Positions 1 to 15,045 of a stretch of DNA of 28,263 nt are shown piece by piece. Position 1 is the stretch's first letter. The number at the start of each line of letters is the position of its first letter. A program made the position numbers and the translations under genes. The stretch comes from a virus. Lineage: Duplodnaviria; Caudoviricetes. The stretch is taken from the IMG/VR virus record IMGVR_UViG_3300044728_000153, positions 1 to 28,263 of that record; one strand, given 5' to 3'. The notes beneath the pieces are model-generated. The model ran no database searches. It saw only the letters and a program-made list of their open reading frames with translations, and had not been told where the DNA came from.

Positions 1-1138
1 TGCCTGCTGTACCCATCAGGTTAGTAGAGTTAGTAGTCTGTCGCTTTATTGCGCTGCCCCATGCATTAGGAACGGCAGGGGTAGTCTCCTTACCACCAAG
101 ACCAATACCTAATACCACTCCATGAATGTTGGTCTTCTCCCATGTTCCTGTCGTGTCGCCAGGAACAGTTCCAGTCAGCCACTGCCATGTTGCTGCAACA
201 ACTGTGTGTTCTCTGAAGTAGTTACGATCTTGTAGGTTATTAGAAACGCGAACGTAAATAACGCCTGACACCAAAGGATAAAACCAGAAGCCATAAGTCA
301 GTGGTGACGCGCTTGACAAACCCCAATTCAATCGCGCTGCACGATAGCCTTCAATGCTTTGTTGCAAGAACAAATAGTCACCGCTAGTTGCTGCCGTAAA
401 CGCATTGATAGCATTTACCTGAATGCAGTTTTGCAACACAAAGTTGGCAGCAGTAGTGCGCGTTACTGCCGTATTCATTGCACCAGAAGCTTGTGAACTC
501 CAACAAACCCATCCATCACACGGACGGACATTTGTTGCTGGTGCAGTGATGAATTGACCAGTACTACCAACCTCTTGACTAACCTCCATGCTGCCGTTGA
601 TCTGCATGCCGCTGTAGGCGATCGCATCATAAGGCGCAGCGTAGGCGCGCACGGCGTCGACATACTGCTTGGGGGCGGCTTGCAGCGCGACCGCGGGATC
701 GCCGGGCAGCGTCAGCGCGCCGCCCATCGTGTCGCCGGCCTTGTTGACGAACACAGAGCTATCGATCGCCGGCGTAGCGACCGCCTGCACCCACTGCGAG
801 GGGCCGGCGCCGTCGTTATAGCGGATGTAGAGCAGGCCATTGTCGCTATCCCACCACATCGAGCCGTCCGGTGGCGTGACGGGCGGATTATCGCTGATAT
901 AGAGCGACGACTTGGCGTCGACGTATTGCTTGGTGGCGGCTTGCAGAGCCGCAGCGGGGTCGGCCGGCAGCGTGAGCGCGCCAGACATGGTATCGCCGGT
1001 GCGCTTGACGAAGGCGAGCTGGTCCTGCGACTGCGCCACCCAGGCGGTGCCGTCCCAGCGATACTGCGGGACGCCGGCCTGCGGCGGGGTGGGGTGCAGC
1101 TCGCCGACCGCGGGGGCGTTGGGGAAGTTGATGCCCAT
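1..1138 (-). CDS. Tail fibre/receptor-binding protein, paralog B (C-terminal end runs off the window; absent from the ORF track)
   Basis: ATG at 1138, 2 nt after the stop of 1141..2982. Manually translated: MGINFPNAPAVGELHPTPPQAGVPQYRWDGTAW...GDTMSGALTLPADP...TKQYVD...SMWWDSDNGLLYIRYND...AYSGMQINGSMEVSQE...IEGYRAARLNWG...VPGDTTGTWEKTN; the frame is open to base 1. Collinear homology to 1141..2982. Confidence 0.88.
   Translation of the reverse strand, partial: MGINFPNAPAVGELHPTPPQAGVPQYRWDGTAWVAQSQDQLAFVKRTGDTMSGALTLPADPAAALQAATKQYVDAKSSLYISDNPPVTPPDGSMWWDSDNGLLYIRYNDGAGPSQWVQAVATPAIDSSVFVNKAGDTMGGALTLPGDPAVALQAAPKQYVDAVRAYAAPYDAIAYSGMQINGSMEVSQEVGSTGQFITAPATNVRPCDGWVCWSSQASGAMNTAVTRTTAANFVLQNCIQVNAINAFTAATSGDYLFLQQSIEGYRAARLNWGLSSASPLTYGFWFYPLVSGVIYVRVSNNLQDRNYFREHTVVAATWQWLTGTVPGDTTGTWEKTNIHGVVLGIGLGGKETTPAVPNAWGSAIKRQTTNSTNLMGTAG
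653..997 (-). repeat. Two 84-bp intragenic module copies (653-736 and 914-997)
   Basis: They encode GDTMGGALTLPGDPAVALQAAPKQYVDA and GDTMSGALTLPADPAAALQAATKQYVDA. A third, interrupted copy lies at ~2215-2526. Confidence 0.85.
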
Positions 1139-1140
1139 GC

Positions 1141-2982
1141 TCAGAGCCTCGCGTCCGCTGTCCAATGGAATTGAATGAAGTTGCCGGGTAAGGTCAGACT
1201 TATTCCAGAATTATTACCGACGTGAAATCGTGCGTCTCCAGGATTACTAATAAGTCCTGAATTAGCAGCTAAATCATTCCCAGCTCCATCTGAAATCTTC
1301 GTTGCACCCCCATGATAACCATAAATGGTGACAGTAGGTGTTGCTCGCATTTTTATTGGTAAACTAACTGATGCGTATACCTGACCGTGTGGCGCTGGAC
1401 TTGCTATATACCTTGCCTCTAGCCCGCCAGCCGAAGCATCGGCGCCAACGTTAACTCCCGCACTATAACTCTTTTGATAATACCGCTGACACGTCAGCAA
1501 CTCTTGCTCATACGGCCGCATCAGCAGCGGCGACTGCGCGGCGGTGGGCGCCTGAGTGCCGGGGAGGACAACGACACCACCTAAGCGCAAATAGTTTGCA
1601 GCAGAAACGCAAGCGTTAACTTGACCTGCTACTGCTTTATAGTTTCCAGCATTCCATGTGTTCGCAGATGGCGCGAGATACGTCGTCCCAGCAGCCATAG
1701 GAAAAGCTATAACAAGTCCTATGGTATTATCCTTATTCCACGTTCCTGTCGTATCGCCAGGAACAGTGACTGTTTTATATTCCCAAGCACTCGCCACGTT
1801 CTGGGTATAGGTCGCAACGTAGCTGCGAGTACCCGTAGCAGTCTGCACCGAAACACAATACGTGCCGGGAAGAGTATGCGCTGACCAGAACGCAATCGTA
1901 ATCGGAGTGGCTATACTAGTACCCCACCGCAATCGTGACATGCGGTAGCCTTCGATATTCTGGTATATTATTTCCAAATCGGCGGTGGCTAATGACGCAT
2001 GTGCAGCCGTCGTATTCATTGCAACATGTTTTATTACTTCGTTACCAAAAGCGCCGGTCTGTCCCTGTCCATCAGCGAAACCGCCATAAAACCTCCAGCC
2101 GTCACAGATAAAACCCGCCGCGCCAACCACTGCGGTGCCGTGCGCAACTTCCTGACTAACCTCCATGCCGCCGTTGATCTGCATGCCGGAGTAGGCCATC
2201 GCATCGCCGGCGCGGGCGTCGACGTATTGTTTGGTGGCAACGCCGAGCGCAGCAGTGGGATCGGCCCACATACTGACCATTCCTGTCGAACGGTCGATCG
2301 TTATGGGGTCGTCAATTCCAACTCCAACATCGTTGTAACGTGAGATGATGAAGTTAGAACCTACGTTGCCGCCACTCTCAGCTGCCGGGTTGCCAAACGA
2401 CATGCGCCAACGTGTCAGCCCATTCACGCTGCCGATGATTGCCGCACGTTGACCTACCGCGGCTCTATTAAGTGTTATAAATGGATCGACCTTAGCAATG
2501 GTCAGATCGCCGGTCATGGTATCGCCGGCCTTCGCCACAAACGCCGAGGTATCGACCACCGGCATCGCCGTCGCTTGCACCCACTGCGAGCTGTCGCCGT
2601 CGTTGTAGCGGACGTAGAGCATGCCGTTGTCGCTATCCCACCACATGCTGCCGGCGACGGCGTTGGACGGCGGGTCGGCGGCGATGGTCACCTGCGAGGC
2701 GGCCAATTCCCACTGCGCGGCATTGAACGCGCCCGGCCCGTTGGCGACGATCGCCCGCCAGATCTTGTCGGCGTTGGTGACGATGTCGCCGATCGCATAG
2801 ATCGCGGCAATGTCGAAGAAGCGGATCGCTAACAGGGGTTTTGGCGTGCCGAGCGTCGGCGTGGCGGCATCGCCAACCGAGATCTGGCGGTTGGCGGTAT
2901 TGACCGCGATCTCGCCAGGCTCAAGCGTCGGAAACGGTGTCGCCGGCGTGGATGTGCGCCGGTGGCGGTATTGGGATGTCAT
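1141..2982 (-). CDS. Tail fibre/receptor-binding protein, paralog A (Mtd_N-like N-terminus, CBM-like module, ELxxCQRYY motif)
   Basis: 613 aa; GAGGG RBS. N-terminal RHRR...LEPGEIAVNTANRQISVGD resembles the Mtd N-terminal/hyaluronidase-type head. YAIGDIV...W resembles a CBM5/12-like module. TKQYVD and ELLTCQRYY motifs are typical of phage fibres. Confidence 0.8.
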   Translation of the reverse strand: MTSQYRHRRTSTPATPFPTLEPGEIAVNTANRQISVGDAATPTLGTPKPLLAIRFFDIAAIYAIGDIVTNADKIWRAIVANGPGAFNAAQWELAASQVTIAADPPSNAVAGSMWWDSDNGMLYVRYNDGDSSQWVQATAMPVVDTSAFVAKAGDTMTGDLTIAKVDPFITLNRAAVGQRAAIIGSVNGLTRWRMSFGNPAAESGGNVGSNFIISRYNDVGVGIDDPITIDRSTGMVSMWADPTAALGVATKQYVDARAGDAMAYSGMQINGGMEVSQEVAHGTAVVGAAGFICDGWRFYGGFADGQGQTGAFGNEVIKHVAMNTTAAHASLATADLEIIYQNIEGYRMSRLRWGTSIATPITIAFWSAHTLPGTYCVSVQTATGTRSYVATYTQNVASAWEYKTVTVPGDTTGTWNKDNTIGLVIAFPMAAGTTYLAPSANTWNAGNYKAVAGQVNACVSAANYLRLGGVVVLPGTQAPTAAQSPLLMRPYEQELLTCQRYYQKSYSAGVNVGADASAGGLEARYIASPAPHGQVYASVSLPIKMRATPTVTIYGYHGGATKISDGAGNDLAANSGLISNPGDARFHVGNNSGISLTLPGNFIQFHWTADARL

Positions 2983-6008: not shown

Positions 6009-6261
6009 TGCGCTTTGCTTCCCTGATTCGCTTTGCGGCTTGCATCATATTGCCCCCATGCCAGCGGCAGCAATTGACGCCAGACATGGCCAATTGTCCG
6101 CAGGGCTTCCCACTATGCCTTGCAATGGCAACACACCGCATGCGGTTCGCATACGCGGGCTTTATCGCATGCTTGGCCATTGCCGCGCGCCAAGCTGCGT
6201 TTCCCCATTGCGGTTTACGCTTTAAATTATTTTTCAAATTATTTGAATTTAGCTCTTGCAT
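5932..6261 (-). CDS. HGGxSTG-like Cys/His domain protein
   Basis: RCVAIARHSGKPCGQLAMSGVNCCRWHGG fits the RCxA...SGxPC...C..HGG pattern. Start uncertain (6261 or 6180). Confidence 0.6.
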   Translation of the reverse strand: MQELNSNNLKNNLKRKPQWGNAAWRAAMAKHAIKPAYANRMRCVAIARHSGKPCGQLAMSGVNCCRWHGGNMMQAAKRIREAKRNAEQVAGNRVGRQAARRFRQAASHS

Positions 6262-6283
6262 TATGTCCCGATTGGGATATGTT
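6256..6283 (+). promoter_or_regulatory. Putative sigma70 early promoter
   Basis: TTGCAT-16 bp-TATGTT with an AT-rich upstream tract (6221-6250), about 50 nt before the GP88 start. The spacer contains an imperfect palindrome (TGTCCC/GGGATA). Confidence 0.45.
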
Positions 6284-6332
6284 GCGGTTAACCGGAAACG
6301 CCGGCCCACAACGTAACAGAAACGGACATGAC

Positions 6333-7139
6333 ATGAAATATTCCGCTGAAACCATCATTTACAACTTGGATCGGATCGATCCGGCAACGCGTGCCGCAAT
6401 CCTGGCATCGCCGAAATATCTCAAATGGTTTTCACAAAAGCCCGACGCCATGTTGCGCCTCGATGGTTCAACGAAAGTTATCAAGGGAAACAAGTTGGGC
6501 TTTCGAACCGCGATTCTCTATCTCGCCCCTTACACAATGTCGGGCTTCAATGTCTGCCCCATGGCCAAGCTGGCCAAGTGTCATGACGGATGCCTGAATA
6601 CATCCGGACGCGGCGCAATGAAGAGCGTGGCCATGTCACGTTTGCGCAAGACTCTCTTTTTCCTGCAATTCCGCGATGAATGCATTGCGATGGTTAAACA
6701 TGAAGTGGCCAACGCCGAAAAGCACGCGGCCAAGCATGGTTATGTTTTGCTCGTACGCTTGAACGGAACCAGCGACATACGTTGGGAGAATTACGGCATC
6801 ATGCAAGCCTATCCCGGCGTGCAATTCTACGATTACACCAAGCTTGCGAATCGCAAGCATATCCCGGCCAATTATGATTTGACGTTTAGCTATTCTGGCG
6901 TTCCTGAGTTTCAGACTCAAGTCCGGTTAGCTATTGCCGCGGGCATGCGGTTAGCCGTGGTATTCCGCAATCGTGCCATGGTCGAAAGCATGATTGACGC
7001 CGGCGCATCATTCCAAGGGCTTCCTATCGTCGACGGCGACGATACAGACGTCCGGCACATTGACCCGTTGCACAGTGCAGTGGCGCTCTATGCCAAGGGC
7101 TTGGCCAAGCACGATAACAGCGGATTCGTAGTGGGATGA
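6333..7139 (+). CDS. GP88-family phage protein (Cys-rich)
   Basis: 268 aa from ATG 6333. Motifs LYLAP...NVCPMA...C...CLNTSGRG, RLNGTSDIRWE, FYDYTK, YDLTFSYSG, GDDTDVRHID, AKGLAKHDNSGFV. Confidence 0.8.
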   Translation: MKYSAETIIYNLDRIDPATRAAILASPKYLKWFSQKPDAMLRLDGSTKVIKGNKLGFRTAILYLAPYTMSGFNVCPMAKLAKCHDGCLNTSGRGAMKSVAMSRLRKTLFFLQFRDECIAMVKHEVANAEKHAAKHGYVLLVRLNGTSDIRWENYGIMQAYPGVQFYDYTKLANRKHIPANYDLTFSYSGVPEFQTQVRLAIAAGMRLAVVFRNRAMVESMIDAGASFQGLPIVDGDDTDVRHIDPLHSAVALYAKGLAKHDNSGFVVG

Positions 7140-12736: not shown

Positions 12737-12943
12737 ATGCGGCTCTCTGCCAAGCAGCTTCAGATGCTGCGCGACTACGACAATGATCTGGAAGCCACCG
12801 ATATCTGCGCCTTCAACGGTCCGTTCGACTGGCACAATCGAGAGAAAGTAATCTGCGCCTTGATCCGCAAAGGCTTGCTGGTTGAAGACCGCGTCACCGA
12901 AGCCGGTCGCAAAGTGCTCGAGCAAAACAAGGTGCCGGCATGA
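12737..12943 (+). CDS. Small hypothetical protein (68 aa)
   Basis: GAGGA RBS; ATGA overlap with the next gene; ALIRKGLL...VTEAGRKVL resembles a winged-helix tail. Confidence 0.75.
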   Translation: MRLSAKQLQMLRDYDNDLEATDICAFNGPFDWHNREKVICALIRKGLLVEDRVTEAGRKVLEQNKVPA

Positions 12944-14211
12944 GCCGCCATTCCACCATTGTCGGCGGCTCGACCGCCGACCGGCTGCTGAATTGTCCCG
13001 GCAGCTTTCAACTGCTGCAACGCATCCCCGAGCAAGCCGAGATGCCGAGCGAATACGCCGACTACGGCACCGCCATGCATGCGGTGATGGACCGTTTGAT
13101 GTCGATGTATGCCGACGGCTTCCCGTCCGGCAACGAGGATCCGCTGATCTTTGCCGCCCGCGATATGCTCGGCGACACCTTCTATGACCGGGTGCTGGAA
13201 AGCCATCACCTCGAGGATTCGATCTATCCGGCGATCGTCACCTTGTACGACCTGATGCGCGAATACGGCGGCGGCTTCCGCGTCGTCGCCAACGAGTTGA
13301 AGGTAAAATTTCCGGGGATTCCGGGCGCCTTCGGTACCACCGACTTGTTACTGGCAAGTAAGAAGTTCGTGCTGATGGTCGACTGGAAATTCGGCGCCGG
13401 CGTGCCCGTTAAAGCTGTGTACAAAGACGAGCACGGCGAGAAGGTGAACCCGCAGCTGTTGTTTTATTTTGCCGGCGCCATGGAGGAGCTGCCCTCCATG
13501 TTCAATAAGAAGCGGTATGCCGTGGCGGTGATCCAGCCGCGCACCGCCGAGCGGCTCACCCACACCATAATAACCCGGGTTGAGATCGACATGTTCATTG
13601 AGGACATGGACCTCGCCATCATCGCCGCGCTCGGCAAGAACCCGCCGCTGCACGCCGGCGAGCACTGCCGCTGGTGCCCGGCCCGGCCGTTCTGTCCCGA
13701 GCACACCGGCCCGCTGTTTGAGTTAGCCGAGCTAGAAATCCTGCCGGCGCAATTGCGCGCATCCGAAGTCAACGACGGCAACGCGGCTGCTTACGGTGAG
13801 TTTCTCGCCAAGGCCAAGCACCTCGCCGACCTGGCTGCCGATTACAAAAAGCAGGTCGACGAGGCGGTCCACAGCTATCTGGAGAACGGCGGCACCGTGC
13901 CGGGCTGGAAGCTGAAGCAGAAAACTAAACTTCGCCAGTGGATCGACGAGGACATCGTCAACAATGAATTGACCAAGCTCGGCTTCGGCCAGGACGACAT
14001 CTGGCAGCACAAGCTGCAAACCTTTGCTGCTGCTGACAAGGCGGCCAAGCGGCTCAAGGTTAAGATCCCCGAGCACCTGCGCGTCGCGCCGGAAACAGAT
14101 GAGACCGTGATTGCGCCCGAGAGCGACCCGGCCCCAGCGATCGATCGTGCCCAGGCAACCCTCGAGTTTGCCGCGGCGCTGAAGCAATTGCGTCACGAAC
14201 AAGGTTCGTGA
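12940..14211 (+). CDS. Cas4-like PD-(D/E)xK exonuclease (DUF2800 family)
   Basis: HS...GS.A.RLLNCPGS, GTAMH, GTTD, VDWKFGAG, NPQL, IQPR and HCRWCPA...C motifs. Confidence 0.88.
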   Translation: MSRHSTIVGGSTADRLLNCPGSFQLLQRIPEQAEMPSEYADYGTAMHAVMDRLMSMYADGFPSGNEDPLIFAARDMLGDTFYDRVLESHHLEDSIYPAIVTLYDLMREYGGGFRVVANELKVKFPGIPGAFGTTDLLLASKKFVLMVDWKFGAGVPVKAVYKDEHGEKVNPQLLFYFAGAMEELPSMFNKKRYAVAVIQPRTAERLTHTIITRVEIDMFIEDMDLAIIAALGKNPPLHAGEHCRWCPARPFCPEHTGPLFELAELEILPAQLRASEVNDGNAAAYGEFLAKAKHLADLAADYKKQVDEAVHSYLENGGTVPGWKLKQKTKLRQWIDEDIVNNELTKLGFGQDDIWQHKLQTFAAADKAAKRLKVKIPEHLRVAPETDETVIAPESDPAPAIDRAQATLEFAAALKQLRHEQGS

Positions 14212-14268
14212 CACAATACCTGGCCGGCCCCGTCGGGGTCGGTCACCTGTAACATGAAAGGTCTGAAG

Positions 14269-15045
14269 ATGAACGATATCGTCAAACGCAGCTTAGGTTC
14301 GACTGCCCTGTCGGACGACCTCGCCGACCGGCTATTGGCCGGCATCGAGGACAGCCAAGCCACCACGCTCGTAGCCGGCGGCGGCAAGGATCTCATCAAG
14401 CTCGGCAAGTCTGATGGCAACTGGTCGATCGGCCAGGCCGACGAACCCATGCAAGTGGGCAGCAAGTGGCTGATCAACATCGTATCGATCTGCCACGGCT
14501 ACATCTGCTGGTCGAAGTATGAGGGCAGCCGTAAAAATGAGAGACTCGGCGAGGTGATGGTGCCGATGTATGAGCCGAAGCCGAGCAAGCCCGCGGCGAT
14601 CGACGGCTTTCCCTTTGCCGAGCAGCGCAGCTTCGAAGCTGTGTGTCTGAACGGCGAGGACGCCGGCGCCGAGGTGCTGTTCAAAAACGGCTCGGTTGGC
14701 ACGATGAAGGCGTTTAAGAAGCTGGAAGACGCCGTCAAGGCGCAGCTCCGCACCGACCGCGCCTACCCCTGCCCGGTGATCCAGTTCAAGTCCGACAAGT
14801 ACAAGCACCCGGAATACAACTGGATTTGGAACCCGATCTTCGAAGTGGTCGATTGGGCCAATATGGCCGGCGAGCTGAAATCTGGCGCCGGCCCCGACCC
14901 GGAGCCGAAGTCGGCGCCGGCCGCGGCGGCACCGCGGTCGCGCACCAAGCCGGCCCTGGTCGACGACGCGCCGGATACCGCTCCAGACGACGAGGCGGTG
15001 ACGCCCATGCGTCCGGCGCAGCGGCGCAGGCCACCGGCTAGCTAA
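14269..15045 (+). CDS. Putative phage single-stranded DNA-binding protein
   Basis: Lies between the exonuclease and PolA genes. GYICW...GEVMVPM, YKH...IWNPIFEVVDW, and a flexible acidic/basic tail. Start 14269 (GAAAGG RBS) or 14254. Confidence 0.65.
   Translation: MNDIVKRSLGSTALSDDLADRLLAGIEDSQATTLVAGGGKDLIKLGKSDGNWSIGQADEPMQVGSKWLINIVSICHGYICWSKYEGSRKNERLGEVMVPMYEPKPSKPAAIDGFPFAEQRSFEAVCLNGEDAGAEVLFKNGSVGTMKAFKKLEDAVKAQLRTDRAYPCPVIQFKSDKYKHPEYNWIWNPIFEVVDWANMAGELKSGAGPDPEPKSAPAAAAPRSRTKPALVDDAPDTAPDDEAVTPMRPAQRRRPPAS

Follow-up and report, generated by a model that had tools for sequence, protein, structure and literature searches.

The tail-fibre genes analysed here are mosaics of conserved DNA anchors and AT-shifted cassettes, and the cassettes occur as discrete alleles that are reassorted between genomes and bordered by the anchors. 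We think, with a probability of roughly 80%, that the cassettes are swapped whole by homologous recombination at the anchors and are drawn from a pool that spans phage types. The genes lie in a 28,263-base virus record of an uncultured phage type of soil and sediment, with an estimated completeness of 59% and a GC content of 62%; this whole stretch is referred to as the window.

Tail-fibre genes and phage clade

Domain and family searches identified a DNA polymerase A, an SNF2 helicase, a primase and an exonuclease in the record. Gene A (1141..2982, minus strand) encodes a tail-fibre or receptor-binding protein of 613 aa ending in DARL. It matches the PHROGs tail-fibre family phrog_4492 (E 2e-36), is 26-36% identical to annotated tail fibres in tblastn, and its model retrieves tail fibres as fold matches in BFVD (E 1e-25). 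Gene B (<2-1138, minus strand) is truncated by the contig end, so that 379 of its 482 codons are present from the 5' side; the rest is visible in the related locus L008, to whose B the protein is 100% identical in amino acids. It consists of a resident N-terminus (581-1138), anchor 1 (576-628) and a slot 2 cassette (2-580). Both genes match tail-fibre families, and profile, tblastn and fold searches describe fibre genes with a conserved attachment part and a variable binding part.

In the clade of the window, three tandem, co-oriented paralogs A, B and C are found; in relatives, the rest of B is followed by C and then by a small gene that is also present in G004, a phage type otherwise unrelated to the window. 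Other phages differ in their N-termini but share the anchors and likewise end in DARL, and DARL or DARF forms the C-terminal end of nearly all complete family genes. Searches for relatives found no close cultured phage. A first genome scan for hosts found relatives in 0 of 64 candidates and a second in 2 of 64, namely a prophage-like locus of Bradyrhizobium elkanii WSM2783 (47%) and a short hit in a Microbacteriaceae MAG, both of which are too distant for naming a host.

Slots, anchors and predicted folds of gene A

The three slots of gene A, all encoded on the minus strand, correspond to a shaft unit, a jelly roll predicted to be CBM4/16-like and a tip domain. The resident N-terminal part (2503..2982) includes the motif SMWWDSDNG and carries anchor 0 (KAGDTMTGDL, about 2500-2533) at its end; its first 420 nt are 80-100% identical among 11 clade A genes. 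The slot 1 cassette (2260..2502), likely the shaft unit, occurs as five alleles among clade A genes. Its true 5' border is KAGDTM(T/S)G; SMWWDSDNG, originally listed among the shared anchors, is not supported as a cassette border. Anchor 1 (2155..2262; ADPT..TKQYVD..AYSGMQINGGMEVSQE), a putative crossover zone, coincides with a depth peak of Logan contigs and is followed by the slot 2 cassette (1567..2154), inside which VPGDTTGTW is found as a structural motif. Anchor 2 (1483..1566; LPGTQAPTAAQSPLLMRPYEQELLTCQRY), likewise a putative crossover zone and a site of codon homogenisation, separates it from the slot 3 cassette (1156..1482), a beta-rich tip domain. The 3' anchor (1141..1155), DARL followed by the stop, is continuous with the conserved beginning of the paralog that follows. 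In the family, a gene has up to four anchors and two or three independently moving slots.

An AlphaFold model of residues 257-613 of A has a mean pLDDT of 66, with values of 77-95 over model residues ~61-220. The jelly roll of slot 2 is matched by Foldseek to CBM4-2/CBM16 (prob 1.0, TMt 0.56-0.66, 12-15% identity) and had no match in a Pfam search; from this model, slot 2 is predicted to be a sugar-binding domain. Slot 3 was modelled poorly, so that its tip domain is of low confidence. The two-domain tip resembles predicted tail fibres of Ralstonia phiAp1, cyanophages and Xanthomonas OP1h.

Discrete and reassorted cassettes

From a protein scan and three pattern scans, 226 relative loci were obtained, among them 98 metagenome loci of which 80 have full flanks, and the family set comprises 154 distinct genes including those of the window. 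The pattern scans used anchor patterns, which biases this set toward related anchors. Divergence along the genes is not uniform. The 5' parts of clade genes vary continuously between 80 and 100% identity, whereas the slots are bimodal: in slot 2, 14 of 465 clade pairs are at least 90% identical, two lie at 75-80% and 449 below 70%, and in slot 3, 12 of 496 pairs reach at least 95% while 484 remain below 70%. The sample holds at least 95 slot-2 and at least 108 slot-3 alleles. Partial matches between different alleles (at least 88% identity over at least 60 nt) are restricted to a single 69-nt motif among 125 slot-2 sequences, and none was found among 142 slot-3 sequences.

These alleles are combined in many ways. 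Clade A genes show 11 combinations in 12 genes (a count from which the A gene of L197 is left out by the class filter), B genes 8 in 11 and C genes 9 in 13. Gene A of the window is identical to that of L008 from 2982 to 2636 and from 1566 to 1144, with about 40-70% identity in slots 1 and 2; it is identical to L197 from 2249 onward with a different slot 1, and to L009 from 1544 onward with a different slot 2. Its slot 2 is 100% identical to that of L197 and 40-70% identical per window to other alleles, and its slot 3 is 100% identical in L008, L009 and L197.

The borders of such mosaics fall in the anchors. Of the 334 ends of high-identity segments (at least 93% over at least 150 nt) that fall in the stretch from anchor 1 to the stop, 318 lie in anchor zones, which make up 27% of that length, and the 16 ends in slot-2 interiors are mostly found inside same-allele families; the 3' anchor zone alone holds 170 ends. 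The full set comprises 666 non-edge ends; of the remaining 332, 200 are located upstream and 119 downstream, and 13 are unclassified. It has to be read with the caveat that pairs are not independent and that at many ends conserved DNA simply comes to a close. Stronger evidence is that chimeric cassettes are nearly absent. Together with the mosaic borders and the codon homogenisation described below, the segment ends support the original proposal that anchors are crossover zones, but VPGDTTGTW, which had been listed among the crossover points, was rejected as one: it shows neither high-identity segment ends nor a rise in contig depth.

Synonymous base composition

The original hand counts of GC content were all seven reproduced, with 0.75 at 661-720 and 2641-2700, 0.70 at 2161-2220 and 0.72 at 1501-1560 on the GC-rich side, and 0.42 at 181-300, 0.40 at 1201-1260 and 0.37 at 1321-1380 on the AT-rich side. 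The paralog anchors are indeed near-identical in DNA (49/53 at 576-628, 55/64 at 803-866 and 28/32 at 139-170), and the abrupt switch in both genes is real and synonymous. At the fourfold sites of A, GC drops from 86/93 to 51/113 (Fisher p 8e-14), and at those of B from 101/110 to 27/106 (p 5e-25), far beyond chance. Amino-acid composition was rejected as the cause of the AT-richness, as GC12 is nearly flat along the genes (0.52-0.62) and hardly changes where fourfold-site GC drops.

Both N-termini have a fourfold-site GC of 0.92 and the anchors of 0.81-0.94 (0.81 in anchor 1, 0.94 in anchor 2). The values for the cassettes of A are 0.45 (2260-2502), 0.45 (1567-2154) and 0.31 (1156-1482), and 0.25 for the B cassette (2-580). 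The GC-rich island at 1483-1566 stands out from its AT-rich neighbours as had been noticed (17/18 against 69/171 in the flanking slots, p 7e-6), and a third AT-shifted slot of A, at 2260-2502 (20/44), can be added. Since the eight other genes of the window have 0.87 (n=2550 sites), the anchors are close to the genome background, and it is the cassettes that deviate; the contrast between GC-rich anchors and AT-rich cassettes thus stands, while the anchors are not themselves enriched.

The same pattern is found in 63 genes of high-GC loci, which have a fourfold-site GC of 0.78 in the background, 0.80 in anchors, 0.51 in slot 2 and 0.46 in slot 3. The corresponding values in 17 genes of low-GC loci are 0.44, 0.62, 0.42 and 0.44. 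As the low-GC backgrounds average 0.44, the cassettes match AT-richer members of the pool, and G004 has a background of 0.34. We consider it likely that such members supply the low GC of the cassettes. Of the 85 genes whose background could be measured, low-GC phages provide just 17, so that a donor bias large enough to set the cassette GC has to be assumed. The GC of slot 2 tracks the GC of the genome somewhat (rho 0.34).

As alternative, swapping may be real and the AT-richness intrinsic: interiors that do not pair would be spared GC-biased conversion or selection and settle at their mutational equilibrium, while the anchors would be pushed to GC. It is an unlikely account in our view, but a live rival, because low-GC genes are few and cassette singletons show no amelioration, with 63 S>W against 53 W>S changes overall and 32 against 15 without the four longest branches, compared with 52 against 2 singletons in the resident 5' parts. 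These counts are small, and their polarity is uncertain with 3-4 sequences. Anchors exceed the genome background in 16 of the 17 low-GC genes, as this account would have it, but an inflow from high-GC phages accounts for the raised anchors as well, and these are consistent with a two-way flow. Against an intrinsic origin, the cassettes of low-GC phages equal their own background (0.42/0.44 vs 0.44), and cassettes are directly shared with such phages.

A pool that extends beyond the clade

Seven alleles cross the boundary between paralog classes or phage types, which agrees with the original suggestion that domains are exchanged from a shared pool and between paralogs. One slot-2 allele is found in B of L005 and in C of L004 with 99.5% identity, and the more distant L018 type carries a slot-3 allele of C at 100% identity. 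Slot 1 of the window is 98.8% identical over 243 nt to G004/L059. G004 has 49.8% GC, and it shares only 513 bp with the window in total; a 312-nt segment with 96.8% identity to the G004 type begins inside anchor 0 (KAGDTMTG). The flanks of slot 1 in G004 use AT-shifted codons for the same motifs on both sides, and this arrangement with low-GC flanks was found in three contigs. G005, a complete genome, has 246 bp in common with the window, and with clade genes it shares a slot-2 allele at about 91% and a slot-3 allele at 96%. The cassette pool hence extends over unrelated phages with 50% and 62% GC and over paralog slots. A single old horizontal transfer was dismissed in view of the many alleles and of cross-phage identities of 97-100%. 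In the runs X4 and X5, a G004-like phage co-occurs with the cassettes of the window.

Anchors as probable crossover zones

Codon usage supports a separate history of the anchors. At conserved four- to six-fold residues of 94 slot-2 alleles, codon homogeneity is near random in the interiors (0.29, n=23) and 0.52-0.55 in the anchors (n=22; p 3e-6). The anchors even hold fixed AT-ending codons (AGT in 65/79, GAT in 83/88, and also TAT). As anchor codons are uniform while the saturated interiors have random codons, the ancestry of anchors is decoupled from that of cassettes, which would be expected if recombination takes place in the anchors.

Breaks in the Logan contigs are located at 590-611, 1508-1537 and 2169-2200. 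The depth of anchor bins in X4 and X5 is several to tens of times that of adjacent cassette bins, and slots differ in depth within one run (slot 3 21.4 vs slot 2 4.2 in X4; 17 vs 2.8-4.5 in X5), although depth also adds up other phages and is a hint only. Another run, X1, may be the source of the window itself and does not count as independent. This branching of contigs exactly at anchors would also be expected if the mosaics were mainly short-read assembly chimeras joined there, and the recombinant haplotypes of L008, L044, L205 and L018 are known from single assemblies and could be chimeric at anchors. Such an origin of the mosaics is nevertheless improbable. The link between slots 2 and 3 of the window is repeated in L197 and in X3, a different sample, where both slots lie on one unbranched contig of 1,088 nt with 0 differences, and the haplotype of L009 and L010 was found in three contigs. 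Moreover, alleles shared across phages show differences of 1-10%, with codons typical of the partner phage itself in both flanks, and the unequal slot depths inside one run also speak against chimeras.

On this basis, the preferred mechanism of whole-cassette swapping can be outlined. Co-infection of a likely common host would lead to exchange between phages. General recombination, by host RecA or phage annealing functions, would then cross over in the 30-100-nt anchors with their identity of about 80-95%. The interiors (40-70% identical) are probably too divergent for pairing, and cassettes would for this reason move intact. Their AT-richness would stem from the AT-richer phages in the pool and from a turnover that is faster than amelioration, and variable glycans on host surfaces may maintain the many alleles by selection.

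A broader reading is that exchange is community-wide. The common anchors of unrelated soil phages, kept uniform by continual gene conversion, might act as universal sockets for receptor-binding domains across the three paralogs, with recombining anchors driven to GC and, within one reading frame, non-recombining cassettes at mutational equilibrium. We regard this as speculative and quite unlikely; if true, these genes would themselves serve as a test of GC-biased gene conversion in phages.

Search for a dedicated diversification system

Diversity-generating retroelements (DGRs) and the Gin/Cin/Min shufflons diversify tail-fibre tips. It could be asked whether a mutagenic or site-specific system of this kind diversifies the cassettes, as tandem paralogs with common repeats might indicate, but we consider this highly improbable. 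No invertase or reverse transcriptase had been visible in the window, and none was detected in the records searched either: RVT_1 was absent from nine records, the resolvase family PF00239 from ten and the integrase family PF00589 from five. These records include complete genomes of other pool members; the clade genomes are incomplete (59%, 83% and 77%), so that the RVT_1 search covered at most 83% of a clade genome, and among the records searched for invertases and tyrosine recombinases G001 spans both flanks of the array.

The pattern of variation also argues against such systems. The repeats of the paralogs are coding anchors and not a TR/VR pair, and all paralogs of the clade loci are full-length genes in the same orientation, with silent inverted cassettes absent. 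Between same-allele cassettes, no adenine-biased changes were found; the differences are mixed transitions, mostly C/T and A/G with C/T at least as common, and in slot 2 they mostly affect third positions. Many same-allele pairs are 100% identical between assemblies, which, with the ordinary transitions, does not support the proposal that the cassettes are locally hypermutated. In the records searched, there was no sign of machinery dedicated to diversification, nor is any required.

Relation to known exchange systems

The distal tail-fibre locus of T-even phages reportedly recombines between conserved motifs, an observation that is attributed to Tetart and colleagues in 1998. There as here, sub-genic adhesin segments are exchanged at short conserved motifs within tail-fibre genes; the present array differs in its fold family (CBM-like with a tip domain), in its three tandem paralogs with common anchors, and in having partners from unrelated phage types. 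It differs from DGRs and Gin/Cin/Min systems in lacking adenine-specific changes and inverted silent cassettes, and no reverse transcriptase or invertase was found.

Conserved motifs of 20-95 nt that flank the binding domain of tailspikes have been proposed as cross-genus hotspots, and tailspike paralogs are also homologous to each other, according to Pas et al. 2023 (PMC10408124). The tailspike motifs, at 63-81% identity, surround a single complete RBD, whereas a gene of the array has as many as four anchors and two or three independent slots, with homogenised synonymous sites and a GC signature. The flexible gene modules or metaviromic islands of Bellas et al. 2020 (PMC7468147) resemble the array in that divergent variants, including tail-fibre domains, co-exist and shuffle independently and that near-identical variants occur in distant samples; there, this takes place within near-identical core genomes, while the pool of the array covers unrelated phages of 50% and 62% GC as well as paralog slots. 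Smug et al. 2023 (PMC10684548) report domain shuffling in RBPs, with recent sharing across families limited to tail fibres and spikes. De Paepe et al. 2014 (PMC3945230) treat relaxed homologous recombination by Rad52-like recombinases, with traces of homology at mosaic borders; a RecT or ERF gene, by comparison, was not found in the four records searched here.

Because gene A is a fibre gene, near-identical domains occur in new contexts and borders coincide with motifs, the array belongs to the receptor-binding proteins exchanged at conserved motifs. It is a new, unusually clean and multi-slot example of this known modular exchange, in a previously undescribed family: a literature search at the level of listings and abstracts found no description of the fibre family or of a GC contrast between anchors and cassettes in tail fibres. 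The array maps the re-dealing of host-recognition domains to tens of bases in widespread uncultured phages of soil and sediment. Phages with alleles in common are likely to infect the same host, which gives a handle for host assignment, and the contrast inside one ORF separates effects of recombination from translational selection on GC. The array is also a warning that assemblies from short reads are broken or wrongly joined at anchors of this kind.

A candidate annealing helper

An ORF of 263 aa (14254..15045, plus strand) lies between the polymerase and a PD-(D/E)XK exonuclease (12940-14211; Pfam PF10926/PF12705) that adjoins it. Foldseek gave no match at E<=0.001 and Pfam no significant one, an Atlas search returned unnamed viral clusters only, and a homologue was not found in G004, G005 or G008. 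In structure comparison, its model resembles an OB-fold SSB-like protein, with Z scores of 5.4-5.6 to gp32 SSBs and a best VIA-align match to 9teh_I (Z 8.8, rmsd 4.0, 141 aligned), an entry of a phiC31 integrase-RDF fusion in which the matched part is, judging by length, probably the RDF. As a candidate, this protein may aid annealing at the array.

Possible upstream exchange and neighboring genes

In three related loci, L003 (11779-13173), L006 (2856-4250) and L012 (2510-3544), gene B possesses a window-like N-terminus (82-93% to the window), which is joined to a different C-terminal part that is entirely unlike that of the window and contains neither anchors 1 and 2 nor the DARL ending. This combination of a kept N-terminus and a replaced C-terminal part suggests that the upstream GDTM anchor is a further exchange site for gene B. 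Another tail-fibre family member, found in a prophage-like locus of Bradyrhizobium elkanii WSM2783 (L237, 4233-6035), has a high-GC slot 2 and a lower-GC tip.

A small gene starting with MADYQLTATD follows the array in both G001 (C1, 37450-37773) and G004 (C1, 18845-19213), two phages unrelated to each other, and it possibly serves as fibre chaperone and as 3' homology arm of the last paralog.

An additional low-GC region of the window (51-52% GC) contains a GP88-family gene (6120-7139, plus strand), which G001 and G002 likewise carry. The window lacks a lower-GC 193-aa ORF that is inserted directly after the DNA polymerase gene of G001 (C1, 17805-18383) and that, judged by eye, looks like an HNH endonuclease.

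Between exonuclease and DNA polymerase genes, the window encodes an unannotated 263-aa viral protein (14254-15045, plus strand) from a family of 76 homologues. No integrase of the phage was found in the records searched. The top match of the predicted fold of the 263-aa protein is one chain of a phiC31 integrase-RDF fusion structure (Z 8.8), followed by gp32 SSBs, and its PHROGs label is nucleotidyltransferase.
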